Below, one piece after another: positions 1 to 54,506 of a DNA stretch of 64,000 nucleotides; the stretch's first letter is position 1, and every line of letters begins with the position of its first letter. Source of the stretch: Candidatus Poriferihabitaceae bacterium (lineage in GTDB: Bacteria > Pseudomonadota > Gammaproteobacteria > Arenicellales > Poriferihabitantaceae); NCBI GenBank assembly GCA_965208975.1, contig CBDBQH010000003.1:1604792-1668791 (forward strand). Direction: 5' to 3'. The notes under the pieces were generated by a model that searched no databases, had not been told where the DNA came from, and worked only from the letters and a program-made list of their open reading frames with translations. The position numbers were made by a program, and so were the translations under genes.

Positions 1-150
1 AACACGGTGTATGGAGCGGTGGCCTGGTTGAGAGCCGATGATGGAGCGGTGGCCTATGCCGAGAAACATGGTCTGTTCGTCATCCGGGCCACCGGCAGCA
101 GCGCCAGCATCATCAATCAGGATGATTTCAAGCCGCAGGTCTTTTCCTGA
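1..150 (+). CDS. 3' end (49 codons + stop) of a coiled-coil/PD-(D/E)xK-like family protein, paralog A; the 5' part lies outside the window
   Basis: Frame 1 reads NTVYGAVAWLRADDGAVAYAEKHGLFVIRATGSSASIINQDDFKPQVFS*. It is almost nucleotide-identical to 2028..2174, the C-terminus of the 1512..2174 CDS. Confidence 0.75.
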   Translation, partial: NTVYGAVAWLRADDGAVAYAEKHGLFVIRATGSSASIINQDDFKPQVFS

Positions 151-1426: not shown

Positions 1427-1464
1427 CTGCCAGCATATTCACCACCCAACCCCGCGTTCTCTGA

Positions 1465-1470
1465 TATAAT
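1465..1470 (+). promoter_or_regulatory. Candidate -10 box (TATAAT) inside the leader block shared by paralogs B and C
   Basis: ctgatataatcacc...aacataaaggagtatccttgatcATG is conserved between 1461..1514 and 11911..11955. There is no convincing -35. Confidence 0.35.
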
Positions 1471-1511
1471 CACCAAACCATCAAACCCAACATAAAGGAG
1501 TATCCTTGATC

Positions 1512-2174
1512 ATGCCAACCAACGCCGTACCCACCTCGGACGAAATCTGGAAAATCCTGATAGAAACAAATGCCAGCCTGGACAGAACCAATGCCAGCCT
1601 GGACAGAACCAATGCCACTCTGGACAAAACTGCTGCCAGCCAGAAAGAAACCGATAAACTACTGAAAGAATCCAGCCGGAAAGCCCGCCAGGAAATAAAA
1701 GAACTTCGTCTCAGCCAGAAAGAAACCGACAAGCAAATCAAAAAGACCGAAGCTCTGTTCAATACCCAATGGGGACGGCTGATGGAGAGTCTGGTAGAAG
1801 GAGATTTATTAAAGATCTTGCAGGAAAAGGGAGTGAATGTGGATCAGACGTACCGGAATGTGGAACACAGAGGCCATGGCGATGATTATGAATATGACAT
1901 TGTCGCAGCCAACGGGCACGAAGTCGTAGTGGTTGAAGTCAAGACCACGTTAAAGGTGCGGGATGTGAAAGACTTTCTGGTCAGCGTCGGCAAGTTCACG
2001 ACCCGCAGACCGCAGTATCGGGACAACACGGTGTATGGAGCGGTGGCTTGGTTGAGAGCCGATGATGGAGCGGTGGCCTATGCCGAGAAACATGGTCTGT
2101 TCGTCATCCGGGCCACCGGCAGCAGCGCCAGCATCATCAATCAGGATGATTTCAAGCCGCAGGTCTTTTCCTGA
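1512..2174 (+). CDS. Coiled-coil + PD-(D/E)xK-like (restriction-endonuclease-fold) protein, paralog B; resembles the DUF3782-type architecture
   Basis: An AAGGAG RBS lies 9 nt upstream of the ATG at 1512. The N-terminal ~90 aa are K/E/R/T/Q-rich with 3x NASLDRT repeats. The C-terminal half carries DDYEYDIVAANGHEVVVVEVKT, a D...E-x-K motif. Family naming is from memory and was not searched. Confidence 0.8.
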   Translation: MPTNAVPTSDEIWKILIETNASLDRTNASLDRTNATLDKTAASQKETDKLLKESSRKARQEIKELRLSQKETDKQIKKTEALFNTQWGRLMESLVEGDLLKILQEKGVNVDQTYRNVEHRGHGDDYEYDIVAANGHEVVVVEVKTTLKVRDVKDFLVSVGKFTTRRPQYRDNTVYGAVAWLRADDGAVAYAEKHGLFVIRATGSSASIINQDDFKPQVFS

Positions 2175-2378
2175 AAACAGGGTTGGGAGGCGCATCGGCT
2201 GACCGATGAGTCGCCAAGCGTCTCGTTCCGGGGCTTGAAGCCCAGATACTCAGTCGCTTTTTTGTTCAAAACAGTTTCGTAATCATTCATACGAAAATAC
2301 TCACACTCATTACTAAAGAATGAGTTTTTATATACGTGGCCAGACGGAAAAATTAATCACTCACAACAAGGATCACAA

Positions 2379-2913: not shown

Positions 2914-3726
2914 ATGTCTGCTGTATCCATTTCACAACACGAGATCGAGGAATTCCAGCGCGAGGGAGCCATCTGCCTGCGTCAGGCGTTCTCTCACGAC
3001 TGGCTGGAGTCACTGGCCGCAGGGGTTGCGAAAAATTTTGAGAACCCCGGCCCATACAGCACACAATATACCCCTCACGGCCAGCCCGGAGGCTTCTACG
3101 ATGATTACTGTAACTGGCAGACTATTGACGAGTATCGTGATTTTGTGATGAATTCACCGGCGGCGGAGATTGCGGCCCGCCTGACCGGCTCGGACTCCGT
3201 CCGTATCTATCATGAGCATGTGCTGGTCAAGGAACCCGATACCAGAGAGGTGACGCCGTGGCATCATGATTTGCCATATTGGGGGTTAGAGGGGAATCAG
3301 TTGTGTTCGATCTGGCTGCCGCTTGACCCGGTCCCGAAAACAGCCTGTCCGGAATTTATCGCGCAGTCCCACCAGTCCGGGGTGATGTATTATCCGAGAC
3401 TTTTCGCCAATCATGAAAACTATGCGAGCGGGCATGACGGGTTTGAAACGATTCCCGATATTGACAGTAATCGCGACCAGTACAATATTTTGTCCTGGGA
3501 TCTTGAACCCGGCGACTGTATTGTATTCCACATGAGAACGCTCCATGGCGCTCCGGCCACGACCGGCCTGAAAACCCGGCGGCGGGGTTTTTCAACACGC
3601 TGGCTGGGAGATGACGCGGTCTATGCCGTTCGTCCATGGACCACATCTCCGCCTTTTGAAGAAATTACATTGACTGCGGGCGAACCGATGGCGCATCCCG
3701 CTTTCCCGGTTGTCTGGACGGGTTGA
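2914..3726 (+). CDS. Phytanoyl-CoA dioxygenase (PhyH) family Fe(II)/2OG oxygenase
   Basis: It has the EEFQREGAICLRQAF N-terminal motif, an HxD in PWHHDLPYW and a distal His in FHMRTLHGAP. Confidence 0.65.
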   Translation: MSAVSISQHEIEEFQREGAICLRQAFSHDWLESLAAGVAKNFENPGPYSTQYTPHGQPGGFYDDYCNWQTIDEYRDFVMNSPAAEIAARLTGSDSVRIYHEHVLVKEPDTREVTPWHHDLPYWGLEGNQLCSIWLPLDPVPKTACPEFIAQSHQSGVMYYPRLFANHENYASGHDGFETIPDIDSNRDQYNILSWDLEPGDCIVFHMRTLHGAPATTGLKTRRRGFSTRWLGDDAVYAVRPWTTSPPFEEITLTAGEPMAHPAFPVVWTG

Positions 3727-3750
3727 GCCAAGGGGTTGGGATTTACGAAG

Positions 3751-5940
3751 ATGGGCAAATCGGTCAATATTCAGGGACTCACTGTAGACGAAGGACTTTA
3801 CAATCTGGTGGAAGATGAGATTTTGCCGGGAACAGGGGTGGATTCGAGCCGGTTCTGGGGCGGATTGGCGAAAATCGTTGAAGATCTTGGCGGGAAAAAC
3901 AAGACGCTTCTCGACAAGCGTGACGATTTGCAGTGTCAGATTGATGAATATTACAGAAACGGCAAGGCCCTTCTTGATGTCGCCGCACATAAAACTTTTT
4001 TGCAGGACATCGGCTATCTGCTCCCCGAAGGCGAACCCTTTGCGGTCACCACTGAAAATGTGGACGATGAGATCAGTGAAATTGCCGGGCCGCAACTCGT
4101 CGTACCTGTAGACAATGCACGTTATGCATTGAACGCGGCCAATGCGAGGTGGAACAGTCTTTATGACGCTCTGTATGGCTCCGACATTATTCTTGAGGTG
4201 GAAGGCTGCAAAAAAACCGCGAAATACAATCCGGTGCGGGGCGCCCAGGTGATTCGTTATGTGCGTCAGTTTCTCGACGAAGCGATTCCCCTGGCGACAG
4301 GCAGCCACGCATACTCGGTCCAATACAAGGTCAAATCGGGAAAACTTGTCGTTGTCATGGGCGACGGGAGTGAGACCGGCCTGGGTTGGCGGGAATGTTT
4401 TGCCGGCTATCGCGGTGACCCCGAAGCGCCTGACAACATTCTGTTCAGGCACAATAATCTGTATATTGATATTTGTATCGGTGAAGGTTATTTTATCGGT
4501 AGAGGAGACCTTGCGAATATCTATGATGTCAGGATTGAGTCGGCATTGACCACCATCATTGATTGTGAGGACTCGGTCGCCGCAGTGGACGCCGAAGACA
4601 AGGTTCGGGTTTACCGCAACTGGACCGGCCTGATGAAAGGAACCCTGAAAGCTGATATTCGCAAGGAAGGCAAGTGGGTGGAAAGAGTGCTCAATCCCGA
4701 TCTGGTCTACATTGCCGCGGATGGCAGTCCCTTCCGTGTACATGGTCGAAGCGTGATGCTGGTGCGTAATGTAGGAACGCACATGTATACCGACGCGGTC
4801 ACTTGCAAGGGAGAGGAGATACCGGAGACCTTCCTTGATGCAATGGTTACGGCGCTTGCTGCCATGCACGATTTAAGTGGAACGGGTGAGTTGAAAAACA
4901 GCCGCAAGGGGAGTGTCTATATCGTCAAGCCCAAGATGCACGGTCCTGAGGAAGTAGCGGCGGCAGTCGAGTTGTTCGAATACGTGGAGCGGGCGCTGGG
5001 TCTTGCGGCCAATACCCTGAAAATCGGGATCATGGACGAAGAACGCCGGACTACAGTGAATCTCAGGGAGTGTATCCGGGCGGCCAGGGAGCGTGTGATT
5101 TTCATCAATACCGGCTTTCTGGATCGAACCGGGGATGAGATTCATACCTGTATGGAGGCTGGAGCGGTCATACCCAAGAACGATATGAAGTCATCTTCCT
5201 GGCTGCTGGCTTATGAAGACTGGAATGTCGATATCGGACTGGATTGCGGTATGTCCGGTCATGGTCAGGTTGGCAAGGGGATGTGGGCCGCGCCGGACAA
5301 TATGAGGGCCATGATGGAGCAGAAAATTGCTCACCCGAGAGCAGGCGCCAATACGGCCTGGGTGCCTTCGCCGACAGCGGCTACCCTGCACGCGATGCAT
5401 TATCATTGCGTCAACGTCAAGATCCGGCAACAACATTTGAAATCCTGTTTGCGGGCTGACCTGGACGACATTCTGACCATCCCCATCCTGGAGCGCACCG
5501 TCAATCACAGTGAAATGGTCAAGGAGTTGGAAAATAATGCCCAGAGCATATTGGGATATGTCGTGCGCTGGATTGACCAGGGGGTAGGCTGTTCCAAGGT
5601 TCCCGATATCAGTGATGTCGCGTTGATGGAGGATCGGGCGACGTTGAGAATTTCCAGCCAGCATATTGCCAACTGGCTGTATTTCGGTGTAACGACCTCA
5701 AGCCAGGTGCGTAAGGTATTTAAAAAAATGGCGGGAGTGGTGGACCGGCAGAACTCGCATGATCCGGCATATACCGCGATGTCGGATGATCTGGACAATA
5801 GCATCGCGTTTCAGGCGGCGCTGGAGCTGGTGTTCAAAGGCCGGGAAACACCAAACGGATATACTGAGCCGGTACTGCATTGCCGACGCAGGCAACGGAA
5901 ATCTGCCCTGAAACCCGATTTGCTCACGCGACAGGACTGA
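3751..5940 (+). CDS. glcB: Malate synthase G
   Basis: At ~730 aa, the length and N-terminus ([25 protein letters not shown]) are collinear with GlcB. The ATG at 3751 is preferred over the upstream TTG at 3736. Confidence 0.9.
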
Positions 5941-5941
5941 A

Positions 5942-6880
5942 TTGTCCGAGAATACAAAAGGGATTCTGTGCCTGGTAGGGGCGCTTGTTTTTCTGACAAT
6001 CAGTGATTCCATTGTCAAATGGTTGAGTCCTGACTATGCACTGCATCAGATCATGCTGTTTCGCGCGTTTTTCGCGCTTCTTGTAGCGCTGATTTTCATT
6101 TTCTTCGGTGGCGGGGTTCAGTCACTGAAAACCCGTCGTCCGGCATTGCATATTTTGCGCGGCATGTTCCTGGTTTTTGCCAATATGTTTTTTTTCATGA
6201 GCCTTGCAACCATGCCGATGGGGGAGACGGTGGCCCTGTTTTTTGCGGCGCCCCTGTTTATCTGTTTGCTGGCCCAGCCAATTCTGGGAGAAAAGGTCGG
6301 AGTGACCAGCTGGGCAGCAATCGGAATCGGCTTGATCGGAGTGTTGATCATGGTGAGACCGGGTACGGACCTGTTTCGGATTACTTCGCTGTTACCCATC
6401 CTGGCGGCGTTGATGTATGCAGGAATGCAGATGGTCACACGGAAACTGGGGTTGCAGGACCGGGCCAGTACCATGACGTTTTATATTCAGGTCTGTTTCA
6501 TCCTGGTAAGCGTCGTGATTGGACTGGCTGTTGGCGATGGGCGGTTCGATAACAGTGGCAATCCGACGGTCGGATTTTTGCTGCGAGCCTGGAAAATGCC
6601 GGATTTGGCTGCTTTGAAGTTGCTGGCGCTCTGCGGGTTTGTCATAGCCTTCGGCGCTTATCTGATGTCACAGGCCTACCGTATCGGGCAGGCTTCTGTC
6701 ATCGCGCCTTTCGAATACACATCATTGCCTTTTGCCCTGATTACAGGTTATCTGCTCTGGGGGGATTGGCCGGATGCCATATCATTTGTCGGATGCGCTT
6801 TTATCGTAGGTGGTGGATTGGTTGTCGCGCTTTTCGACAAGCGGCTGGTAGCGGAGGTTGGAGTCCGGAAAAGGCCGTAG
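5942..6880 (+). CDS. DMT-superfamily (EamA-like) transporter
   Basis: About 10 hydrophobic segments are arranged as two EamA-like halves. TTG start. Confidence 0.7.
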   Translation: MSENTKGILCLVGALVFLTISDSIVKWLSPDYALHQIMLFRAFFALLVALIFIFFGGGVQSLKTRRPALHILRGMFLVFANMFFFMSLATMPMGETVALFFAAPLFICLLAQPILGEKVGVTSWAAIGIGLIGVLIMVRPGTDLFRITSLLPILAALMYAGMQMVTRKLGLQDRASTMTFYIQVCFILVSVVIGLAVGDGRFDNSGNPTVGFLLRAWKMPDLAALKLLALCGFVIAFGAYLMSQAYRIGQASVIAPFEYTSLPFALITGYLLWGDWPDAISFVGCAFIVGGGLVVALFDKRLVAEVGVRKRP

Positions 6881-9081
6881 GCCTGGCAGATGTGGCGGGT
6901 TTGTGTTGGCAAATGGTGGAGGAGGCCGGCCTGTATGATCGCTCGCAGCCGCGCTTTACCCTGTTTTTTCCCTCGCGGGGGCGCCAGCGAGTTGCACTGC
7001 CGCCAGGGCTTTGACTGAAGGATCCGTTCAATCAGCAAGGCCGCATCCGTCTCTGACAGGTCATTATCTTCTGTGGTAAGCAGATATTGGCAGAACCCGG
7101 ACAGAGCGCTTGAAATGTTGTCCATGTTGCGGTGGGCAAAACCAAACCCGATGAGGTCAATCAGTTCATCCTGTGGAGGTATGTAACGGTTGTTCTGGCG
7201 AGATAACGAGTTGTAAATTTCGATCATCAGTTTCGGTTCCATATCCCGATACCGGGTTTTTAAATGGAGCGGGAGATTTCCCCGGAACTTGTTCTGTGCC
7301 CGGTATGCCAGCTGTTCTCCCCGCCTGGAGAGGGGGCGCATCATCGCGCAGGACAGAGCGCCGGTATTAGCGCCTGGTTTGAATCCGATGCGTACTGGCA
7401 GAAACAAGTTTTTGCCCCAGAACCGGATGAAGGGAGCGCTCGCGCCGAATGACGCGCTCAACGAGTCCAGGGCTTTGTATTGGCTCGCGATTTCACGGAT
7501 CAAGGCGCTACCGATGCCGCTCCGTTGATATTCGGGCTTAACAACAATACGAACGATCCGGGCGGTGGTCTGCTGTGCTCCTTCATGGAGTCCTGCCTGT
7601 GCGGCAAGCAGTTCAGCGAAAAGGTGACCCACCGGACGTGAGTGGTTACCCCAGACTTCCCGGGCCTGGGTTTCCGACAAGCCGCCTTCGACAGATACCA
7701 GCGCAACCCCGGATACCTGACCCTGGAAACCAGCGCAGTAAATGTCCAGATTCGGCGAGTCCAGCAAATACCGGAGGTCGCCCGGACGGGTGCGGTAGTG
7801 CGCCTGAGTCAATAACGCGAACACTTCCCGCAATCGGGATTCGCAGGCCACCAGTTGGTTTTTGTCAATAGCTGTTATATTGATGTTCGAGGCTGAATGT
7901 TTCTCTCCTGGGACGGGAGCGGATTCGGCGTCGAGAAGCAGGATGTCGAACAGGAGTTTCTCCACAGGGTCCTGCTCTGCCCACCGGATTGGATGACGCA
8001 ATTCGCATTTTTTCCATCCTCGTGTGTATTGATCCAGCAATTTGCCGAAATGGGTTGCGAAACCACGGCCTGTTCCTTCGTAGCCATGAACGGTGCTGGC
8101 AAATGCGATTCGCGGGTAGGTTTTCAGGATTTCCGTTAAGACGGGAATCGGCAGGGTTGCCGCTTCATCAATCAGCAGCATTTCGATATCCGCTTTTTCC
8201 CGGATCAGCCGGTCCGCCGGGATGAATTTCAGGGCGGTATCCTTCGCACCGGAGTCGATCCGCGCGTGTTTGAATACGTTTTCAACGGATTTCCGGTTCA
8301 GGCCACAGACTCCGATACGGTGGACCCGGCCGCTGTCCAGTAAAGCCCTTGCCGCCAGCCCTAAGGCGGCGGATTTACCTCTGCCGCGGTCGGCAAGCAA
8401 AACCACAGGATGCCGTCTTTGCCCGGTAACGACTTTTTTTACCGCGTTGACCGCTTGTGTTTGATCTCTATAATCCGGGTGAGTTTGCCCGCACCGGCTC
8501 CGGGGGAGTTCTGGCAACGATGGCAGGCCGCAGCCCTGTTCGATCAGGATGCAGTGTTCCGAAGACTGGATTCTGCGTACCAGGCGTTCAATATAGCGGC
8601 TGTGCCGGGGCGGTGAGAGTCCGTGGGGTATGCGCTTTTCGAACAGATAATCCCGGATTTTCGGCCAGTGAGTGAGCGCGGGAGCGAGCAGAATCAGCAA
8701 CCCTCCCGCTTTCACGGTTGCCGCCACAATGCCGATTGCGTCCGCTTCAAATCCACTGTGGCAGTCATGGATCACCGCATCGTATTCGCGTCCCAGGTGA
8801 TTGCGGCATTGATTGATTCTAACGGATTGATGGATTTCTGTCGGAGACAGCGGTGAATAATCCGGATCGGATACCAGGAGGATGTTCTGTTTATCCGGTT
8901 TGGTGAAAGGTTCGCACAAATCCTGCGCCGAACGCCATCCCCAGTCCATATCGCCACACAGGACGATTGCGTGTCTGTGGCGCTTCAGTTCGCCGATCTC
9001 GTGTAATCGGTAACCCCGTTCAATGAACCGTGTTTTGTGTAACGGGCGGATCATTGTCGGTTTCGTCTGTTCGCAACTCAA
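6748..9081 (-). CDS. tmcA: tRNA(Met) cytidine acetyltransferase
   Basis: It has a helicase-type P-loop (LLADRGRGKSAALG) followed by a GNAT acetyl-CoA motif (VKPEYQRSGIGSALI), which is the TmcA architecture. The 3' end overlaps the convergent transporter gene by 133 nt. Confidence 0.8.
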   Translation of the reverse strand: MSCEQTKPTMIRPLHKTRFIERGYRLHEIGELKRHRHAIVLCGDMDWGWRSAQDLCEPFTKPDKQNILLVSDPDYSPLSPTEIHQSVRINQCRNHLGREYDAVIHDCHSGFEADAIGIVAATVKAGGLLILLAPALTHWPKIRDYLFEKRIPHGLSPPRHSRYIERLVRRIQSSEHCILIEQGCGLPSLPELPRSRCGQTHPDYRDQTQAVNAVKKVVTGQRRHPVVLLADRGRGKSAALGLAARALLDSGRVHRIGVCGLNRKSVENVFKHARIDSGAKDTALKFIPADRLIREKADIEMLLIDEAATLPIPVLTEILKTYPRIAFASTVHGYEGTGRGFATHFGKLLDQYTRGWKKCELRHPIRWAEQDPVEKLLFDILLLDAESAPVPGEKHSASNINITAIDKNQLVACESRLREVFALLTQAHYRTRPGDLRYLLDSPNLDIYCAGFQGQVSGVALVSVEGGLSETQAREVWGNHSRPVGHLFAELLAAQAGLHEGAQQTTARIVRIVVKPEYQRSGIGSALIREIASQYKALDSLSASFGASAPFIRFWGKNLFLPVRIGFKPGANTGALSCAMMRPLSRRGEQLAYRAQNKFRGNLPLHLKTRYRDMEPKLMIEIYNSLSRQNNRYIPPQDELIDLIGFGFAHRNMDNISSALSGFCQYLLTTEDNDLSETDAALLIERILQSKPWRQCNSLAPPRGKKQGKARLRAIIQAGLLHHLPTQTRHICQAYGLFRTPTSATSRLSKSATTNPPPTIKAHPTNDMASGQSPQSR

Positions 9082-9098
9082 GAGAATTCACACGAGAT

Positions 9099-10446
<1,348 letters not shown>

Positions 10447-10588
10447 GAAAACAATCCAGATAACCAATGAAATTCCAGGTGACAATGATACGATACAAAC
10501 TCCGTTTTTACAGTACCAATGACCAGGCATAGCAATGACCAGATGGCAGATTGCCCTGTGCGTTGATACACTTCTCGTTCAGTAAACC

Positions 10589-11533
10589 ATGGCATTGAAT
10601 CAGGGAATATTTTCGCGGCTTGCAAAAACCCGGCAGGCTCTGTCTTCCGGCTTGATGGGATTATTCTCGTCAAGGTCGAAGCTGGACGATCCGTTGTTCG
10701 ACGAGATCGAGGATCAATTGATTATGGCGGATTTGGGGGTGGCTACCAGCCGACTGATCGTTGACAGGTTGCGCGGTGAGGCCAGGTCCGGTCATTATAA
10801 CTCATCGGAGCGGGTGATCAGCGCTCTTGGGCAGATCATTCAGGCCATCCTGAACGAGAATCAGCGCTGTGGCCCTCCGGTTGCGCCCCAAAAACCCCAT
10901 GTCCTGTTGATGGTCGGGGTGAATGGGGTCGGCAAGACCACGACGCTGGCGAAAATGGCGAATCGGTTCAGGCAAAGCGGTCAATCCGTGATGATGGCTG
11001 CGTGCGATACTTTTCGCGCCGCCGCGATTGAACAGCTTCAGACCTGGGGGGAGAGGCTCGATATACCGGTTATTTCCCAGGCGCACGGTTCTGACGCCGC
11101 GGCGGTTGCATTTGATGCGTACAGCGCCGCCAAGGCCAGGGGGGTTGATTATCTGTTGATTGATTCGGCGGGACGACAACATACTCACAGTGACCTGATG
11201 GCGCAACTGGCCAAAATCAAACGAGTATTAGGCAAAACAGAGGAAACCGCGCCGCATGATGTGTATATCACAGTGGATGCGGGCAATGGTCAGAACGCGC
11301 TTTCCCAGGTTGAGAGTTTCAATCGTTCGATTCCGTTGACCGGCTTGTGTGTTACAAAACTCGATGGCACCGCCCGTGGCGGTATCGTGGTCGCGCTGGC
11401 GCACCGATTTGATTTGCCGGTCAGGTATATCGGGGTTGGGGAAGGGGTCGCGGATTTGAAGCCCTTCGACACCGATGAATTTGTTGCGGCCTTGTTGCCG
11501 GACATCGCGGACGTTGATCGTTCCGCGCATTAG
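10589..11533 (+). CDS. ftsY: Signal recognition particle receptor FtsY (short form, NG domain only)
   Basis: [27 protein letters not shown] and [10 protein letters not shown] motifs are present. Confidence 0.93.
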
Positions 11534-11748: not shown

Positions 11749-11847
11749 TGGATTACCATGTATTAAACAGGGGCGAAGTGTAAATTAAGCTACGGTTCAG
11801 GGCAAATGAAAACTGGCGCCCAAATTCCGCGATAGAGATTCAGGATT

Positions 11848-11892
11848 GTGTTTTCGGGCGGTGTGTTTTCAGGCGGTGTGTTTTCAGGCGGT
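11848..11892. repeat. 3 x 15-bp tandem repeat (gtgttttcRggcggt) upstream of paralog C
   Basis: Read directly from the sequence. Confidence 0.85.
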
Positions 11893-11952
11893 ATATTGAG
11901 TAGTCTGATTCTGATATAATCACCAACCCAACATAAAGGAGTATCCTTGATC

Positions 11953-12615
11953 ATGCCAACCAACGCCGTACCCACCTCGGACGAAATCTGGAAAATCCTG
12001 GGGGAGACTTCCGCCATCGGTAAAGAAACCGATAAGCGTCTGGATAAAACCAGCCGGGAAATGGCAGAATTTCGTATCAGTCAGGAAGAATCCAGCCGGA
12101 AGGCCAGCCGGGAAATAGAAGAGATTCGCGCCATTCAAAGAGAAACGGCAAAAGAGATAAAAGAAACCACCCGTGGACTGAAAGAAGCCAAAGCCCTGTT
12201 TACCACCCAATGGGGCCAATTGATGGAAAGTCTGGTAGAGGGGGATTTGATAGAGATTCTGAATCAATGGGACATAGCGATTGCCCATACCAGTACCCGT
12301 GTTAAACAAAGGGGTCGAGGTGATGATTATGAATATGACATTATTGCGGTAAACGGACGGGAAGTGGTAGTAGTAGAAGTGAAGACCACGTTGAAAGTAT
12401 CGGATGTCAAGGATTTTCTGGAGAGTTTAGGGAAGCTTACGACCCGTATGCCCTATCATAAAGACAAGATCATTTATGGAGCGGTGGCGTGGTTAAGAGC
12501 GGATGAGGAAGCGGAAGTTTATGCGGCGAAACAGGGATTGTTTGTGATACGGGCGACGGGCAGCAGCGCCCGTATTGTCAATCGGAAAGATTTCAAGCCG
12601 CAGGTCTTTTCCTGA
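11953..12615 (+). CDS. Coiled-coil + PD-(D/E)xK-like protein, paralog C
   Basis: It has the same length as paralog B (220 aa from the ATG). The first 16 aa (MPTNAVPTSDEIWKIL) and the C-terminal core (DDYEYDI..NG.EVVVVEVKTTLKV.DVKDF...GLFVIRATGSSA...DFKPQVFS) match, while the coiled-coil is divergent. Confidence 0.8.
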   Translation: MPTNAVPTSDEIWKILGETSAIGKETDKRLDKTSREMAEFRISQEESSRKASREIEEIRAIQRETAKEIKETTRGLKEAKALFTTQWGQLMESLVEGDLIEILNQWDIAIAHTSTRVKQRGRGDDYEYDIIAVNGREVVVVEVKTTLKVSDVKDFLESLGKLTTRMPYHKDKIIYGAVAWLRADEEAEVYAAKQGLFVIRATGSSARIVNRKDFKPQVFS

Positions 12616-12714
12616 AAACAGTACGGCGGGCACAGAGGGTCGCCCTGAATTTCCCGGATTGATGTGCCAAGGATGAGCCATAAGTGCGGTGATCACCATA
12701 ATGTTACTCTAAAA

Positions 12715-14547
12715 TCATTCCACCGTAACCGACTTGGCGAGGTTTCTGGGTTTGTCCACGTCGGTGCCTTTGATCAGGGCTACGTGGTAGGCGAGAAGCT
12801 GGAGGGGGATGGTGTAGATGATGGGGGCGATGGAGCTGTCGACCGGGGCTACGTTGGTGACCTGGAGGTTTTCCTGATTGGTCATTCTGGCGTTGGAGTC
12901 GGCGAAGACGATCAGTTTGCCGCCGCGGGCGCGCACTTCTTCGATGTTGCCCTTGAGCTTGTTCAGCAGGCGATCATTGGGGGCGACGGATATGACCGGC
13001 ATTTCGTTGTCCACCAGCGCCAATGGGCCATGCTTCAGTTCTCCGGCCGGGTAGGCTTCTGCATGAATATAAGAAATTTCCTTCAGTTTCAACGCTCCTT
13101 CCAGAGCAATCGGATAGTGTACGCCGCGTCCCAGGAACAGGGCATGATGCTTGTCTGCGAACTGCTCCGCAATGATCCGGATTACCGGCTCGAGTTCCAG
13201 CGAATCTTCTACCTTGCCAGGCAATTCCCGCAGTTCCCGCACTAGTCCGGCCTCGTCTTCTGCGGTCAGATTGAATCTGCGGCCAACCACGATGGTCAGC
13301 AGGCGCAGCGCGGTCAGTTGGGTCGTGAATGCCTTGGTCGAGGCGACTCCGATTTCCGCTCCCGCATGGGTCATCAGGACCAGGTCGGTTTCCCGCACCA
13401 GGGCGCTTTCCGCAACATTGCAAATTGCCAGGGAATGTTTATAACCTTCCGCTTTCGCCAGGCCTAAGGCAGTCAGCGTATCAATGGTTTCACCGGACTG
13501 GGACAGGGCGACCACCAGGCAATCGTCCGGCACGGCATGACTGCGGGAATGAAACTCACTGGCGATCTCGACCTGGCAGGGTACGCCGATCTCCTCAAAC
13601 CAGTGAAGGGCTACCATGCCGGCATGGTAACTGGTTCCGCAGGCGATGATCTGAACCGACCGGATGCGATCAAAGACGGCGCCGGCGGCGTTGCCGAAAC
13701 AGGCTTCAAGGACGCGGGTTCCGGTCAGCCGTCCTTCCAGCGTATTGGCAATCGCGACCCCTTGTTCGTGAATTTCCTTGACCATGAAGTGACGATAATC
13801 GCCGAGTTCGGTGGCATCTGCCGATATTGCGCTGACCTTGACTTCCCGGTGGCGGGGTTGACCGGCCAGGTCGGTGATCGTGATATGGCCGCCCTTGATG
13901 TCGACGATGTCGCCATTTTCGAGAATCAGGAACTCCCGCGTAACCGGGATGAGCGCCGACATGTCCGAAGCAATGAATGATTCACCCTGGCCGAGCCCGA
14001 CCACCAGTGGTGAACCTCGTCGCGCCCCGATCAGACGACCCGGTTCATCTGCGCTGATCACGCCAATGGCAAACGCGCCTTCCAGTACCGCGAGTGTTTT
14101 CTTGACCGATTCCAGAAGAGCCAGACCGTCCTGGATATGTCGATATATTTCGTTGACGATGACTTCGGTGTCGGTGTCGGAGTGAAATTCCATGCCGTCT
14201 GTGATTTGCGCCTGCCTGAGGCTCTCGTGGTTCTCGATAATGCCATTGCAGACCAGCGCGATTCGACCGCCGCTGATGTGAGGGTGGGCGTTGATTTCCG
14301 TGGGCGGGCCATGGGTTGCCCAGCGGGTATGGGCGATGCCGGTTGTGCCGTGCATGGCGCCGGAACCGGAAAGCGCCTTTTCCAGTTCGATGATTTTACC
14401 GACGGTGCGGGTACGTGAAATATTCCGCTCCGGGCCGATTAGCGCAATACCGGCAGAATCGTATCCCCGGTATTCCAGACGTTTCAGTCCGTCCAGCAGG
14501 AGCGGAAGAACATCAGACTTTGCGGCTGCGCCGACTATCCCGCACAT
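12715..14547 (-). CDS. glmS: Glutamine--fructose-6-phosphate aminotransferase
   Basis: It starts MCGIVGA, ends ...NLAKSVTVE and is 610 aa long. Confidence 0.97.
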   Translation of the reverse strand: MCGIVGAAAKSDVLPLLLDGLKRLEYRGYDSAGIALIGPERNISRTRTVGKIIELEKALSGSGAMHGTTGIAHTRWATHGPPTEINAHPHISGGRIALVCNGIIENHESLRQAQITDGMEFHSDTDTEVIVNEIYRHIQDGLALLESVKKTLAVLEGAFAIGVISADEPGRLIGARRGSPLVVGLGQGESFIASDMSALIPVTREFLILENGDIVDIKGGHITITDLAGQPRHREVKVSAISADATELGDYRHFMVKEIHEQGVAIANTLEGRLTGTRVLEACFGNAAGAVFDRIRSVQIIACGTSYHAGMVALHWFEEIGVPCQVEIASEFHSRSHAVPDDCLVVALSQSGETIDTLTALGLAKAEGYKHSLAICNVAESALVRETDLVLMTHAGAEIGVASTKAFTTQLTALRLLTIVVGRRFNLTAEDEAGLVRELRELPGKVEDSLELEPVIRIIAEQFADKHHALFLGRGVHYPIALEGALKLKEISYIHAEAYPAGELKHGPLALVDNEMPVISVAPNDRLLNKLKGNIEEVRARGGKLIVFADSNARMTNQENLQVTNVAPVDSSIAPIIYTIPLQLLAYHVALIKGTDVDKPRNLAKSVTVE

Positions 14548-14556
14548 AACTGGCGT

Positions 14557-15936
14557 CTATTTCTTTTCAGGCCGTTGCCAGTGCCTGACCGAACGCTGCC
14601 GCGCGCGGGAGACGGTCAGCGTATCGCCGGCTACATCATGGGTGATGGTCGAGCCTGCGCCAATGGTCGCTCCGTCGCCAATCGTGATCGGCGCTACCAG
14701 TTGGCTGGCTGATCCGACATGTACATCATCGCCAATCACCGTTCTGTGTTTGTTGGCTCCGTCATAATTGCAGGTAATGGCGCCGGCGCCCAGATTGACG
14801 TGTTTGCCGACCTCGCTGTCTCCGACGTAGGAAAGATGGTTGATTTTGCTTTGTTCCTTGATCAGACTGTTCTTTACTTCGACGAAATTGCCGATCCGCA
14901 CCCCGTCCTTGAGCACAGTCCCCGGGCGAATCCGCGCGAACGGCCCGAGTCGGCAATTTCTCCCGACCACGGCATTCTCAATCAGGCTATTGGCCTCGAT
15001 CACGCAGTTTCCACCGATGGTTGAGTCGCGTATGACCGTATTCGGTCCGATCACGACATCATCGCCCAATTTGACCTGTCCTTCCAGTATCACATTGACA
15101 TCAATTACACAATCCCTGCCGAAATCACAGGTTCCGCGCAGGTCAAAGCGGGAATGATCCAGCAGTGTGATACCCTGATTCATCAATTCCCCGGCAAGCT
15201 GCATCTGGTAGATTCTTTCCAGCCGGCCGAGGTCGGCCTTGCTGTTCACGCCCAGGGTTTCGGTAACTGAATCCGGGGAAACACTTTGTATTTGTATTCC
15301 GTCCCTGGCCGCGTTTGCGATTATATCGGTCAGGTAGAACTCATTTTGCGCGTTTGCGGAGGTGACCGAAGCCAGCCATCGGTTCAGCTGACGCCCCCTG
15401 GCGCACAGACAGTTGGTATTGGTTTCCCGGATATTTCTCTGGGTTTCGGTCGCGTCTTTCTCCTCGACAATGCCGGTGATCTCGTTCTTGTCGTTGCGGA
15501 TAATCCGCCCCATTGCGTGAGGGTTATCAAGCGATACGGTGAGCAGATTGAGATTTTCGCCGTGTGTGACGACCCGTTTGAGTGTTTCCAGGGAAATGAG
15601 CGGAACATCTCCGTTAAGGACCAGTACCGATGTGTTTTCCGCAATATCCGGCAACGCCTGCATGACGGCATGGCCGGTTCCGCGTGGTCTGGTCTGTTCA
15701 ACCCATTTCAGCTTGCCATTCGCGAGCAGGGATGAGCCGCATTGTTTGATTGCCGCGATGACCTGTGCCTTGCCATAGCCGACGACAACATGGATTCGTT
15801 TCGGCGCGAGTCCGGCTACCGTTTCGAGCAGATGTTGCAACATGGGCCTGCCGCCTAGCGGATGGAGCGCCTTTGGTAAATCAGAGTGCATTCTTGTGCC
15901 TTGTCCGGCAGCGAGAATAATGACTTCAAGTGGCAT
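14557..15936 (-). CDS. glmU: Bifunctional UDP-GlcNAc pyrophosphorylase / GlcN-1-P acetyltransferase
   Basis: ILAAGQGTRMHSDLPKALHPLGGRPML followed by a left-handed beta-helix hexapeptide C-terminus. It lies directly upstream of glmS. Confidence 0.96.
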   Translation of the reverse strand: MPLEVIILAAGQGTRMHSDLPKALHPLGGRPMLQHLLETVAGLAPKRIHVVVGYGKAQVIAAIKQCGSSLLANGKLKWVEQTRPRGTGHAVMQALPDIAENTSVLVLNGDVPLISLETLKRVVTHGENLNLLTVSLDNPHAMGRIIRNDKNEITGIVEEKDATETQRNIRETNTNCLCARGRQLNRWLASVTSANAQNEFYLTDIIANAARDGIQIQSVSPDSVTETLGVNSKADLGRLERIYQMQLAGELMNQGITLLDHSRFDLRGTCDFGRDCVIDVNVILEGQVKLGDDVVIGPNTVIRDSTIGGNCVIEANSLIENAVVGRNCRLGPFARIRPGTVLKDGVRIGNFVEVKNSLIKEQSKINHLSYVGDSEVGKHVNLGAGAITCNYDGANKHRTVIGDDVHVGSASQLVAPITIGDGATIGAGSTITHDVAGDTLTVSRARQRSVRHWQRPEKK

Positions 15937-25160: not shown

Positions 25161-25261
25161 AGCAGAAAGCTGGATCAATCAACAAGGCCAATATGACTTA
25201 GGCAGGTAGGTCATCGCCGACTCTCCCGGTGCACCGCCTCCACCAGCGTTTGCACGCGCTC
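25161..25261. repeat. Left direct repeat: a duplicate of the last 17 hemE codons plus 50 bp downstream
   Basis: agcagaaagctggatcaatcaacaaggccaatatgacttaggcaggtaggtcatcgccgactctcccggtgcacc...ccaccagcgtttgcacgcgctc matches 30378..30478. Confidence 0.9.
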
Positions 25262-26053
25262 CGGGTAATTATTGCTGTCCCGTTTTTCAATTGCTTTGAG
25301 CGCATCCTCAGGCAGGGTTGCATAGACCTCTTCGACATGCTTGGGTTCAGACATCGTTTTCTCAGCGATCAGGTTCAGAAGTTTGAACAAAGTCTCGGCA
25401 GTCGCTCTATCATCACGAAGGTCGACCTGGCCGGGGTGGACCGCGTTATTACCGATTACACGGACTGCATCAAGAGCCATCTGAGCACGTTGATCAAGTC
25501 CATCTTTAACCAATTCACCTATATCATCGTTGAGGGTCTTCCCCGATTTACCAAGTTCCTTGCAAAGCTTTTGAATGGCCAACCGGATCAAGGCAGCCGA
25601 ACCTCTCGGCGACAAGTCAAGGATGCTGCTGGCTTCGTCATAGTCTCGACGGATGTCATCAGGCAGGTCAGGATTTGCAGGCGGCGCCTCACCGCGCTGT
25701 GGCCAAATCAGCTTGTCATGGGTCCAGATCGAAATATCTTTGCAGTTGAAACATTCCGAAACAAATGTGTTGTGAAGCAAAAAATTCGCATAATACTCAC
25801 CCTTGCGTTCTCCGAAAAACGGGCGACCATTAGCCATCTTTTCAACCCATTGAAAGAGTTTTTCTCGATCCTCGGCATCCTCAATATGTTCGAAATTGAC
25901 TTCTCCTCGGTTCTCTGGACTAATGACAATAGGAAGCCGTTTTTTTTCTGATGTTGGAAGAGCGCACAAGAGCCACCAACGCTGCATTGCCAACGCGCCA
26001 CAGTGTGGACAGTTGAAAGCAGTTTCTTTAACTGAAGGAGAAACATATTTCAT
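25211..26053 (-). CDS. Zn-ribbon + DUF4145 domain protein; the last 17 aa are encoded by the duplicated hemE end
   Basis: CPHCG...CFNC cysteine pairs, then SPRGSAALIRLAIQKLCKELG...DAVRVIGNNAVHPG, the DUF4145 signature from memory. Its start overlaps the endonuclease stop (TAATG). The C-terminus [17 protein letters not shown] compares with hem[18 protein letters not shown]. Confidence 0.75.
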   Translation of the reverse strand: MKYVSPSVKETAFNCPHCGALAMQRWWLLCALPTSEKKRLPIVISPENRGEVNFEHIEDAEDREKLFQWVEKMANGRPFFGERKGEYYANFLLHNTFVSECFNCKDISIWTHDKLIWPQRGEAPPANPDLPDDIRRDYDEASSILDLSPRGSAALIRLAIQKLCKELGKSGKTLNDDIGELVKDGLDQRAQMALDAVRVIGNNAVHPGQVDLRDDRATAETLFKLLNLIAEKTMSEPKHVEEVYATLPEDALKAIEKRDSNNYPERVQTLVEAVHRESRR

Positions 26054-30331: not shown

Positions 30332-30413
30332 CCCTCTTGACCTTACTGTCACATCAGCGGCCGAGGCGTTAGGGGTGAGCAGAAAGCTGGATCAATCAAC
30401 AAGGCCAATATGA
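30260..30413 (+). pseudogene. higA: HigA/VapI-type HTH antitoxin remnant, frameshifted at the C8 tract (30290..30297) and truncated at the right direct repeat
   Basis: With 7 instead of 8 C the reading is [42 protein letters not shown], the classic HPGEIL...LGVSR HigA N-terminus. Homology stops at 30377/30378, where the repeat begins. Confidence 0.6.
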
Positions 30414-30478
30414 CTTAGGCAGGTAGGTCATCGCCGACTCTCCCGGTGCACCACTTCCACCAGCGTTTGCACGCGCTC
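30378..30478. repeat. Right direct repeat (the authentic hemE 3' end plus 50 bp downstream)
   Basis: See the entry for 25161..25261. Confidence 0.9.
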
Positions 30479-31471
30479 GGGGTTAATGCCGGGGTGAATG
30501 CCGTGGCCGAGGTTGAAGATATGTCCTTCGCCCGGGCCGAAGTCTTCGAGTACACGCTTCGCTTCCTGTTCCACCTTGCCATTGGAAGCATAGAGTACGG
30601 TGGGGTCCATATTGCCTTGCAGGGCAACCGCCCCTGCTGTCCTTTTCCTGGCCTCACCCAGTGAGACCGTCCAGTCCAGTCCGATCGCGTCGCATCCGGT
30701 TTGTGCGATTCGCTCCAGCCACCCGCACCCGCCTTTGGTAAACAGGGTCACCGGGGTTGCAGAACAGGCTGGATCCGTTTTCAGCGCGGATACGATTTGC
30801 GCCATGTAATCCAGCGAGAATTTCTGGTAGTCCGGCGTACTCAACACGCCGCCCCATGTGTCGAATACCATGATGGTCTGCGCTCCCGCCATAACCTGCG
30901 CCTTCAGATAGTCAATCGCCGCCGCAGTGATCTTCTGCAACAATCGGTGCATGGTTGCCGGTTGATCATGCATCATACCCTTGACCAGCATAAAATCCCG
31001 GCTCGACCCTCCTTCGACCATATAGGTAGCCAGAGTCCATGGACTGCCGCCAAATCCAATCAGCGGGACTTTACCTTCGAGCTCCCTGCGAGTCATCCGG
31101 ATGGCTTCCATGACGTAGCCCAGTTGTGTTTCTACCTCCACTGCCGGCAATTTTTCGATCTCTGTCGCCGACCGCAACGGGCGTTCAAATCGGGGTCCGA
31201 TTCCTTCATTCAGTGTCAATCCCAGGCCCATGGCGTCCGGGATGGTCAGAATGTCGGAGAAAATAATGGCGGCGTCCAGGTCGAATCTGTGAATTGGTTG
31301 TAGCGTCACTTCACAGGCCAGTGCGGGATTTTTGCACAGTGTCAGGAAATCTCCGGCGCGGGCGCGGCTTTGCCGATACTCCGGCAGGTAGCGTCCGGCC
31401 TGCCGCATGATCCAGATCGGCGTACAGTCAACCGGCTGACGCTTCAACGCTCTTAAAAATCGGTCGTTCAT
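30428..31471 (-). CDS. hemE: Uroporphyrinogen decarboxylase
   Basis: [33 protein letters not shown]... over a 347-aa ORF. Confidence 0.96.
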
Positions 31472-50479: not shown

Positions 50480-50790
50480 AATCACTCCCCCTCTTGAGGG
50501 GGAGTCGAAGAAGCCGGGACACCGGCTGATTCGGTGGGGGCAAAATCATTCCCCCCTTGAGGGGGAATCCAACAGAAGCAACGAGTCACGAAACAGCAGG
50601 AACCAGACATGATGAAAAGAGAATCAGTCACGCCCACCCCGATTCGCAGGGCAAATCACTCCCCCCTTGAGGGGGAGTCAAATCCGTGTAGCGGATTTGG
50701 TGGGGGGTATTCCCACCCCAATCGTAGAGCCTGCCCCCGGCCTGATCGGGGGGGCGGGTCACCGTGCCCGCCCGCTCTAATGTCGGATCA
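50480..50790. repeat. Cluster of REP-like palindromic modules upstream of the autotransporter gene
   Basis: cccc(c/t)ttgaggggga hairpins lie at about 50483, 50547 and 50657. An aaatccg-tgtag-cggattt hairpin lies at 50679. The gggcggg...cccgccc module lies at 50723..50773. Several modules are repeated in inverted orientation at 54262..54444. Confidence 0.85.
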
Positions 50791-50833
50791 TGAACAAAAG
50801 CCAAATTTCCACTTGACAAGTAAGTTCAAAGAT

Positions 50834-50844
50834 GCTGTTACAAT
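50834..50844 (+). promoter_or_regulatory. Candidate extended -10 promoter element (TGtTACAAT) immediately upstream of the tetranucleotide tract
   Basis: The sequence reads tgctgTTACAAT. A TTGACA lies at 50813..50818, but the 20-nt spacer is non-optimal. Confidence 0.3.
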
Positions 50845-50846
50845 GA

Positions 50847-54215
<3,369 letters not shown>

Positions 54216-54218
54216 CAG

Positions 54219-54506
54219 GATTCCCGTGGATTCCCGCTAATTCCCGCCTGTGGCGGGAATACCCCCCACCGAATCAGCCGGCGCCCGGCTTCTTCGACTC
54301 CCCCTCAAGGGGGGAGTGATTGGATTCCCGACCGTTATCGTAGGGGAGGGTCTTGTACCCTCCCGCAACCGCCGGAACGGGCATCAACGATAGCGGGCGG
54401 GCACAAGACCCGCCCCCCCGATCAAGCCGGGGGCAGGCTCTACGCATCGGTAATTACAGATTCCATATCATCGTGGATTCCCGTGGATTCCCGCCTGTGG
54501 CGGGGG
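54219..54506. repeat. Cluster of REP-like modules downstream of the autotransporter gene
   Basis: ggattcccgtggattcccgctaattcccgcctgtggcgggaat, an inverted copy of the 50480..50540 module at 54262..54321, an inverted copy of 50723..50773 at 54395..54444, and ggattcccgcctgtggcgggg at 54486. Confidence 0.85.

Follow-up and report, generated by a model that had tools for sequence, protein, structure and literature searches.

We analyzed a 64,000-nucleotide (nt) stretch of DNA, hereafter called the window, from Candidatus Poriferihabitaceae bacterium (contig CBDBQH010000003.1). The window carries three same-strand copies of one gene: B, the subject of this work; its full-length paralog A; and copy0, of which only the 3′ end is present. 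The encoded protein has three parts, namely, a 16–amino acid (aa) N-terminal motif (N-motif), a charged helical stalk, and a 140-aa PD-(D/E)XK domain (C-domain). A and B have identical ends and a scrambled middle, a combination that is ordinary multigene-family dynamics. The pattern is genuine and statistically solid; it is likely to reflect the shuffling of repeat modules, recombination from one paralog to another, and purifying selection, all within a multi-copy family of stalked nucleases. The features of the gene copies are listed below (coordinates are those of the window; UTR, untranslated region).

11953–12615, plus strand: coding sequence of B, 220 aa counted from the ATG
11910–11952, plus strand: leader common to A and B, with extended −10-like site, 5′ UTR, and Shine-Dalgarno sequence
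11912–11913 (TG) and 11915–11920 (TATAAT), plus strand: putative extended −10-like site TGnTATAAT of B
11936–11941, plus strand: Shine-Dalgarno sequence AAGGAG of B
11953, plus strand: ATG of B; an alternative TTG start lies at 11947
11953–12000, plus strand: B codons 1 to 16, MPTNAVPTSDEIWKIL, the family-wide N-motif; DNA 100% identical to A
12001–12192, plus strand: B codons 17 to 80, variable charged helical stalk of repeat modules
12193–12615, plus strand: B codons 81 to 220 and stop, Hjc-like PD-(D/E)XK nuclease domain, 140 aa
12226–12228, 12337–12339, 12376–12378, and 12382–12384: putative catalytic residues E92, D129, E142, and K144 of B
12589–12621, plus strand: 33-nt 3′ block of B (last 8 codons, stop, AAACAG), equal to A 2148–2180
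12622–12657, plus strand: 3′ flank of B with a short hairpin-like inverted repeat, GGCGGGCACAGAGGGTCGCCC (12625–12645)
1460–2180, plus strand: paralog A (leader 1460–1511; coding sequence 1512–2174; 220 aa)
1–150, plus strand: copy0, 3′ end of a third paralog truncated by the window start

Identical ends on diverged genes

At the 5′ side, A 1460–1559 (100 nt) and B 11910–12000 (91 nt) are the same save for one 9-nt indel in the 5′ UTR, which is shorter by that length in B. The block consists of 17 nt, TCTGATATAATCACCAA, followed by 76 nt free of mismatches (1484–1559 and 11925–12000), and spans TGnTATAAT, AAGGAG, the ATG, and codons 1 to 16. When the match/mismatch string was permuted 20,000 times, the longest run obtained was 49 nt, compared to the 76 nt observed. 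At the 3′ side, a block of 33 nt (2148–2180 and 12589–12621) is also free of mismatches. An earlier, sequence-only reading of the window had described the 5′ block, its 9-nt indel, an identical C terminus (in its title only), and equal protein lengths of 220 aa; the block limits agree with ours within 1 nt, the 3′ block bears out the common C terminus, and the lengths hold when counted from the ATG.

The segments between these ends behave very differently. The C-terminal 140 aa of the two proteins share 69% identity, and the identity of the corresponding DNA rises through successive thirds of the C-domain from 64% to 70% and 78%. The C-terminal half had been called highly similar, which is true of the protein but not of the DNA (64 to 78%, with synonymous sites saturated). 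Synonymous and nonsynonymous differences were counted by the Nei-Gojobori method. Codons 81 to 209 contain 61 synonymous differences in 89 sites [proportion of synonymous differences (pS) 0.69; synonymous divergence (dS) ~1.9, saturated; proportion of nonsynonymous differences (pN) 0.18], and pN/pS in the nuclease domain is ~0.26. There are no synonymous differences in the 11 sites of codons 1 to 16 and none in the 6.2 sites of the last 11 codons. The C-domains of A and B are of different, anciently diverged types. Aligned by segment, the genes do not diverge uniformly; divergence is sharply concentrated between homogenized flanks (pS 0 versus 0.69), as had been proposed.

Residues 17 to 80 (64 aa) are barely alignable and yield only a poor, gapped alignment. 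In agreement with the sequence-only reading, most residues in this middle segment differ, while its charged and polar composition is retained: the two stalks contain 42 to 48% D/E/K/R, 22 to 33% T/S/Q/N, and 16% strong hydrophobics. The apparent ratio of nonsynonymous to synonymous divergence (dN/dS) of the middle, 0.38, comes from an unreliable alignment, and positive selection on the stalk was rejected as an explanation.

The conserved ends were also compared across genomes. Conservation is unusually high in the leader core CAACATAAAGGA(G/A)TAT, in the TGnTA(T/C)AAT element, and in the first codons; codons GCCGTACCCAC...GAAATCTGG.AAATCCTG are nearly invariant, and the last 9 codons are likewise conserved. 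Cross-genome pS is 0.23 in codons 5 to 16 versus 0.56 in the C-domain. The suggestion that conversion acted at the ends only is therefore not supported, since the first codons are also under some constraint. The simplest guess is that this nucleotide-level constraint on the 5′ end comes from translation initiation. Yet A and B agree throughout at a set of positions that vary freely among genomes, namely, the nucleotides separating the ribosome-binding site from the ATG, codons 2 to 4 and 8 to 9 (Thr/Pro/Ser), and the third positions of the Asp codon. Identity at these positions points to homogenization within the genome, beyond constraint alone.

A conserved RNA structure in the leader was considered as well. 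The consensus fold of leader and first codons is weak (−1.7 kcal/mol) and has no compensatory changes, so such a structure is unsupported; in this fold, AGGA pairs with the UCCU of codons 15 to 16, and the pairing is invariant. Rfam gave no match in the window or around B. In L012, a copy from a metagenome, the 5′ UTR (~225–275) carries a heptanucleotide repeat, (ACATCAA)n, downstream of the −10 element and ahead of the Shine-Dalgarno sequence. It is at this spot that A and B differ by their 9-nt indel, which indicates that leader length is itself variable.

Stalk modules and probable exchange between paralogs

Both stalks are built of in-frame repeats. That of A contains a 21-nt tandem repeat in 3.7 copies at 1565–1641 (TNASLDR heptads), and that of B contains an internal 54-nt (18-aa) repeat at 12050–12090 and 12104–12144. 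The source contig (2.10 Mb) encodes at least eight paralogs of 199, 213, 220, 220, 234, 239, 257, and 260 aa, whose stalks reuse common modules in differing numbers and orders. These modules are (TNA[TS]LD[KR])n; ETSAIGKETDKRLDKT; (SREMEEFRxSQEESSRKA)n; and (ETDxxxK)n; the junction with the C-domain reads KQIKKTE or KQLKEAK. The eight paralogs combine the modules with four C-domain types (67 to 81% mutual identity). A single 18-aa unit is all that separates protein P0012 from P0121, and a single heptad separates P0022 from A. Across the family, repeat periods are 7, 11, 14, 18, 21, 25, and 29 residues, each of which can be composed from 7s and 11s. A and B hold different modules and therefore differ at most aligned middle positions without rapid substitution; fast point substitution in the middle is not supported, given that their 7-, 11-, and 18-residue modules are differing assortments from a common pool.

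Comparison with a sister assembly supports the same picture, since the likely orthologs there differ almost only by module indels in the middle. The C-domains of B and P0003 are 98% identical, and their stalks are 64 and 75 aa long; for P0002 and P0004, the C-domains are 100% identical and the stalks measure 104 and 96 aa. The C-domain DNA of L012 is 90 to 97% identical to that of B, while its stalk has a substituted first module and lacks one heptad.

Exchange that is not confined to the stalk is seen in a related Arenicellales assembly with 11 copies of the gene within ~32 kb. In the first third of the C-domain, these copies form two groups with ~72% identity between them. In the last third, copies a1 and b2 change group, and yet another sorting appears over the final 36 nt. 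Copies from both C-domain groups have the same first 48 nt, and leader types are combined anew with C-domain types. Breakpoints thus lie all along the gene, including inside the nuclease domain, and not just at the borders of the stalk, where the sequence-only reading had expected them. Nuclease domains in the array that are 97 to 100% identical carry stalks of 43, 71, 78, and 96 aa. Identical stalks recur in a2, a4, and b4 and likewise in b5 and c1. With mosaics in both the proteins of the source genome and the DNA of the array, exchange between paralogs, already raised in the earlier reading, is the best account.

Copy0, which confirms that there is a third paralog in the window, shares 99% DNA identity with the end of A, and the match ends precisely at the stop codon. 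Its sequence is probably that of P0022 (213 aa), i.e., A less one heptad. The 3′ flank of B is mosaic: AAACAG is held in common with A and is followed by ~40 nt, including the hairpin, held in common with copy0 and L012 and lacking in A. This hairpin-bearing flank is the probable 3′ end of the repeated unit.

Under the account that we favor, three processes would act together. In-frame stalk modules of 21, 33, and 54 nt would expand, contract, and swap by slippage and unequal recombination, and exchange of modules from a common pool would make two paralogs look divergent at most positions. Recombination or gene conversion over short tracts between paralogs would move segments such as the promoter, the 5′ UTR together with codons 1 to 16, and the final codons, leaving A and B with identical ends on long-diverged nuclease domains. 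Purifying selection would hold the nuclease domain and the N-motif, with extra nucleotide-level constraint on the translation-initiation region. Each copy would be driven by an extended −10-type promoter of its own and would require no partner gene. For B, the TGnTATAAT upstream of the gene is the putative promoter; a −35/−10 scan made no call at this site, where no −35 match is present.

Stalk length is variable but quantized. Among 42 representatives at 50% identity, the distance between W13 and W87 is strongly nonuniform modulo 7 (chi-square P ~1e-8) and flat modulo 3, 4, 6, 9, and 12, so helical phase is kept. Phase keeping speaks for a register that runs on without a break, as in a coiled coil, or, at the least, for an N-motif that always has the same orientation to the nuclease head. 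The stalk would most likely be a dimeric coiled coil that keeps heptad phase and bears the N-motif at its far end.

The protein, its relatives, and its surroundings

An AlphaFold model of B, built on an 80-sequence alignment [predicted local distance difference test (pLDDT) 87.8], begins with one helix (residues 9 to 105), followed by strands 112 to 119, 126 to 133, and 137 to 147; helix 149 to 160; strand 173 to 183; helix 185 to 193; and strand 197 to 201. In the same alignment, E92, E127, D129, and E142 are invariant, conservation of K144 is 90% or higher, and I12 and W13 of the N-motif are nearly invariant. The E..D..ExK signature is intact in B, its Glu lying in helix 1, its Asp in strand 2, and its (D/E)xK in strand 3; catalytic residues were mapped to these elements by position in the model, not by geometry.

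With the Pfam Hjc profile (PF01870; cut-off 21.1 bits), A scores 26.8 bits, above the cut-off, and B 20.9 bits, just below it; all 80 aligned members match at E ≤ 0.01 (best, 2.7e-8). AHJR-like, UPF0102/YraN, NERD, and PDDEXK_10 profiles were matched alongside Hjc. All top Foldseek matches in the PDB are PD-(D/E)XK nucleases, among them the nuclease domains of Can2, Cdn1, Card1, EndoMS/NucS, AF1548, and VC1899. The best were those of Can2, Card1, and Cdn1 (E about 1e-3, probability 1.0), and Hjc was weaker (0.47 to 0.63). A viral structure library returned generic PD-(D/E)XK nucleases only, a PDB sequence search returned designed coiled coils and one sub-threshold Hjc match, and NCBIfam returned sub-threshold YraN and Hjc only. 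Weak PADLOC matches to CARF-nuclease effectors (CARF_PDDEXK) are confined to the nuclease domain. As modeled, B belongs to the PD-(D/E)XK nuclease superfamily, in its Hjc-like branch, and its product is predicted to be an active DNA endonuclease.

A word-indexed search yielded 2,044 relatives, and a full profile search yielded 4,096 clusters at 50% identity with E ≤ 1e-3 (2,255 with E ≤ 1e-10). The closest relatives come from metagenome-assembled genomes of Arenicellales (Gammaproteobacteria); others are labeled Bdellovibrionales or Oligoflexia, and one, 31% identical, lies in a Bacteroidales genome. The N-motif, ..PT.DEIW.IL, is conserved across the family. The C-domain is exactly 140 aa long in 122 of the 164 parsed proteins, whose stalks range from 18 to 197 aa; the extension ahead of the nuclease domain measures 80 aa in B and ~40 to >200 aa in the family at large. 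Same-strand tandem copies occur at 18 of 92 loci, and arrays of the family have a ~1.6-kb periodicity.

Precomputed matches to the Pfam family DUF8196 (PF26618), to which many paralogs and homologs of B are assigned and which has no described function, exist for P0002, P0004, P0006, P0011, P0022, P0032, and others, some of them weak or faint. Paralogs 78 to 80% identical to B have such matches; none is recorded for B. The literature searched contained no mention of DUF8196. B nevertheless appears to belong to a catalogued family with textbook-type evolutionary analogs, and the view of the sequence-only reading that the pattern is the feature of the window hardest to explain with known families is not supported: besides the DUF8196 entry and the Hjc-like fold, an analogous architecture of coiled coil plus PD-(D/E)XK domain was published in 2007 and 2016.

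That architecture is the one of DUF1626/PDDEXK_10 endonucleases (PF07788, COG5493), which have N-terminal coiled coils (DUF3782) and are likewise without an assigned function (PMC1913061, PMC3424549, PMC4786415). They combine the same N-terminal helical region with an Hjc/Hje-like domain, and the model of B agrees with the DUF1626-type architecture and topology as described in PMC1913061. Sequence matches fall below the cut-offs: B scores 15.9 bits against PDDEXK_10 (cut-off 21.2) with no DUF3782 (PF12644) match, and A scores 13.1 bits against DUF3782 (cut-off 24.4). At E ≤ 0.01, PDDEXK_10 is matched by 7 of the 80 members and DUF3782 by 5. The motif-III lysine is kept in the B family and is often Thr in DUF1626, and, unlike in DUF3782-type stalks, no nonad or β-layer motif was seen in the stalks of the B family. 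The sequence relation between the two families is only remote.

Hjc itself shares with B the PD-(D/E)XK core with its E..D..ExK motif, a likeness that extends to Hje (PF01870). Hjc is, however, a stalk-less archaeal protein of ~120 to 140 aa encoded by a single-copy repair gene, whereas the B family has a stalk of up to ~200 aa and an N-motif, bacterial hosts, and many copies per genome; with its 80-aa N-terminal extension, B is not a compact single-domain Hjc. Relative to Can2, Card1, and Cdn1, whose nuclease domains are the best structural matches of its C-terminal domain, B has a helical stalk in place of the CARF sensor domain, and no CRISPR-Cas genes were found among the neighboring genes examined.

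Two further comparisons concern evolution rather than fold. Streptococcal M and M-like proteins and Borrelia Bdr proteins have conserved termini, a helical middle of tandem repeat blocks whose number shifts through intragenic recombination, tandem paralogs, and mosaic alleles. Their likeness to the B family is one of evolutionary pattern only, since they are surface proteins under immune selection; the product of B is cytoplasmic and nuclease-like, with no signal peptide or anchor noticed and no evidence of positive selection. The HsdS specificity subunits of type I restriction systems, to which the sequence-only reading had compared the gene, have conserved coiled coils and variable globular target-recognition domains. 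They resemble the B family in that a distance within a nuclease-associated protein changes when short repeats of a helical spacer are gained or lost, but the arrangement is reversed, with the stalk being the variable part in the B family, and no methyltransferase or restriction partner genes are present.

Genomic neighborhoods were scanned for recurrent partners. The 129 flanking proteins match 157 Pfam families, the commonest 5 times, and a conserved operon partner was accordingly dismissed. Integron cassettes were dismissed too, on the grounds that each copy brings a promoter with it and that no attC-like site was recognized. Some copies lie in islands where mobile-element and toxin-antitoxin genes (Fic, TrwC, HipA, HigB, and AbiE) are plentiful. 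Searches of viral contigs, phage records, and plasmid records found no relatives, and PHROGs gave noise only. An 804–base pair (bp) unit with an identical 181-aa member, P0032, occurs in two islands that are nearly identical and encode a TrwC relaxase (L006 5941–6744 and L008 5941–6742). It stands on different sides of Fic genes in the two islands and is bracketed by ~65-nt dispersed repeats.

In the closest clade, nuclease genes adjoin genes for DUF1640/CCDC90-like membrane proteins in three of the contigs examined, which come from two sources.

L001 1564–2034, 3234–3737, and 4839–5210; L002 8070–8420; L013 1149–1493: DUF1640/CCDC90-like genes
L014 225–581, minus strand: DUF1640/CCDC90-like gene

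The encoded proteins have a C-terminal hydrophobic, transmembrane-like segment and a variable number of 11-residue LATKADIEALR repeats; in the CBDDOO array (L001/L002), they are 116 to 167 aa long. Within the closest clade, their genes alternate with those of stalked nucleases or border them. The LATKADIEALR repeat matches the β-layer motif of DUF1640 and of DUF3782-type endonuclease stalks (Hartmann et al., PMC4786415). Neither the visible part of the window nor more distant relatives show this association. A DUF1640 protein and a stalked nuclease may form a two-gene module.

In the window, B lies between infA and glmS. The ten larger open reading frames (ORFs) around it, eight upstream (2914–11533) and two downstream (12715–15936), are housekeeping genes. 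The G+C content of B is 0.48, compared to 0.54 to 0.59 in the downstream flank; just upstream it is 0.51, about the same as in B. One further repeat lies next to the gene:

11847–11891: 15-nt tandem repeat in three copies, TGTGTTTTCAGGCGG, between infA and the promoter of B

This repeat falls within the segment singled out by the sequence-only reading (11848–12615), but it has no homology in the alignment with A and is outside the repeated gene unit.

Several other elements surround A. A HicA toxin gene (930–1181; Pfam HicA E 2e-12) lies between copy0 and A and is overlapped from upstream by a 111-aa ORF (644–979) with no Pfam match, presumably encoding a HicB-like antitoxin. A 37-nt perfect direct repeat, GGCTGATTCGGTGGGGGGTATTTCACGGATGTGGTGG, is found directly upstream of the A promoter (1288–1324 and 1360–1396, 72 nt apart). 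Downstream of A, a 137-aa ORF (2379–2792) has a lipoprotein-like N terminus, as judged by eye, and matches Pfam Phage_VG64 (E 6e-54). A dispersed REP-like palindrome, ATTCCCGC..GCGGGAATCCACAA, occurs at 230–255, 381–406, 1258–1276, 1401–1426, and 51030–51064. It translates to the pseudo-peptide IPAFAGMT and is abundant also in the Arenicellales array (L001 to L003).

Elsewhere in the window, ~27 GCCA tetranucleotides are clustered in 50813–50957, immediately past a strong promoter-like site (TTGACA followed by TGnTACAAT). They stand at the start of a 1122-aa ORF (50847–54215) whose sole match, to Calx-beta, is weak and which is bracketed by inverted REP-like repeats (50488–50760 and 54249–54444). 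Phase variation of this locus is possible. In addition, a 106-nt direct repeat (25161–25266 and 30378–30483) is 97% identical over its two copies, which are 5.2 kb apart.

Competing explanations and significance

Several points weigh against the combination of module shuffling, exchange between paralogs, and purifying selection, or limit its reach. Source-genome DNA comprises two full copies and one partial copy, and the wider mosaicism comes from proteins and from the array of another genome. The low cross-genome pS of the 5′ end (0.23 versus 0.56) means that constraint contributes to the conserved ends alongside conversion. Only 16% of stalk residues are strongly hydrophobic, the stalk of neither A nor B has a clear hydrophobicity peak at 3.5 residues, some relatives have E/R/K-rich stalks of the single–α-helix type, and the coiled coil is thus putative; the modulo-7 test parsed 42 of 150 representatives. 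Cleavage by the nuclease, its oligomeric form, and the part played by the N-motif are predictions.

Selection without any recombination between A and B would account for much of the conservation at the ends: the leader core CAACATAAAGGA(G/A)TAT and the first codons are nearly invariant among genomes, pS across genomes is reduced in codons 5 to 16 relative to the C-domain, and the last 9 codons are conserved as well. Strong purifying selection would not, however, make A and B identical in the spacer, codons 2 to 4 and 8 to 9, and Asp third positions, which vary across genomes, and the reassortment of leader types against C-domain types in the array is impossible by selection alone, which makes this explanation very unlikely. 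The copies might instead represent a selfish mobile nuclease gene, a unit of ~0.75 kb reaching from the −10 promoter to the hairpin ~40 nt past the stop and spreading like a homing endonuclease, in which case the identical ends would be element ends. Homology between copies does begin at the −10 element and end at or just past the stop codon, neighboring genes are unrelated between loci, and PD-(D/E)XK homing endonucleases exist. B also sits amid housekeeping genes with a G+C content below that of its downstream flank, although similar to that upstream, and the P0032 unit occupies two positions relative to Fic genes in near-identical islands. We consider this explanation unlikely all the same. 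Neither terminal inverted repeats nor target-site duplications were seen, and viral contigs, phage records, and plasmid records held no relatives. Same-strand arrays with ~1.6-kb periodicity better fit unequal crossing-over, the ~65-nt dispersed repeats around the P0032 unit could themselves drive rearrangement, and what is conserved at the ends corresponds to promoter, ribosome-binding site, and coding motifs kept across genomes.

A variable region between conserved blocks, many and often arrayed paralogs, and near-identical nuclease domains on stalks of four lengths could also suggest programmed diversification of a middle cassette that alters a specificity module, be it by pilE/pilS-type conversion, a diversity-generating retroelement, or a shufflon; a cassette or diversifying system had been among the proposals of the sequence-only reading. 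This is highly improbable. The 64-kb window contains no second copy or fragment of the middle segment and no promoterless fragments of the silent-cassette kind, and no reverse transcriptase, invertase, or recombinase is encoded by the ten larger ORFs around B. Every full copy in the window and the array has a promoter-like site, a ribosome-binding site, and an intact frame. The redundant identical stalks of the array do not resemble a curated repertoire, breakpoints are not limited to the borders, and the dN/dS of the middle is not above 1. A related idea assigns function to the stalk: the stalk would be a module for length or pairing specificity, the paralogs would be a repertoire of otherwise identical nuclease heads on stalks that differ in length and charge pattern, and together with DUF1640 proteins they would constitute a new stand-alone system of defense or DNA surveillance. 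Gene conversion would then keep heads and ends uniform, repeat shuffling would make the stalks diverse, the spacing from the N-terminal docking motif to the nuclease would set what is cut, and the partner in the closest clade would be the neighboring membrane-anchored DUF1640 protein with its variable repeats. We regard this as distinctly unlikely.

Repeat-module shuffling and recombination between paralogs under purifying selection thus remain the explanation that we prefer. The distribution of the family is patchy, island-prone, and array-forming, and this suggests that its cellular role is an accessory one (conflict-related or selfish) and not one in core repair. The data provide a clean natural example of a helix whose length varies in steps of 7, 11, and 18 residues. 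B also draws attention to a large, uncharacterized family with a Pfam DUF entry, DUF8196, and offers a pointer for assigning function to DUF8196 or DUF1626-type nucleases.

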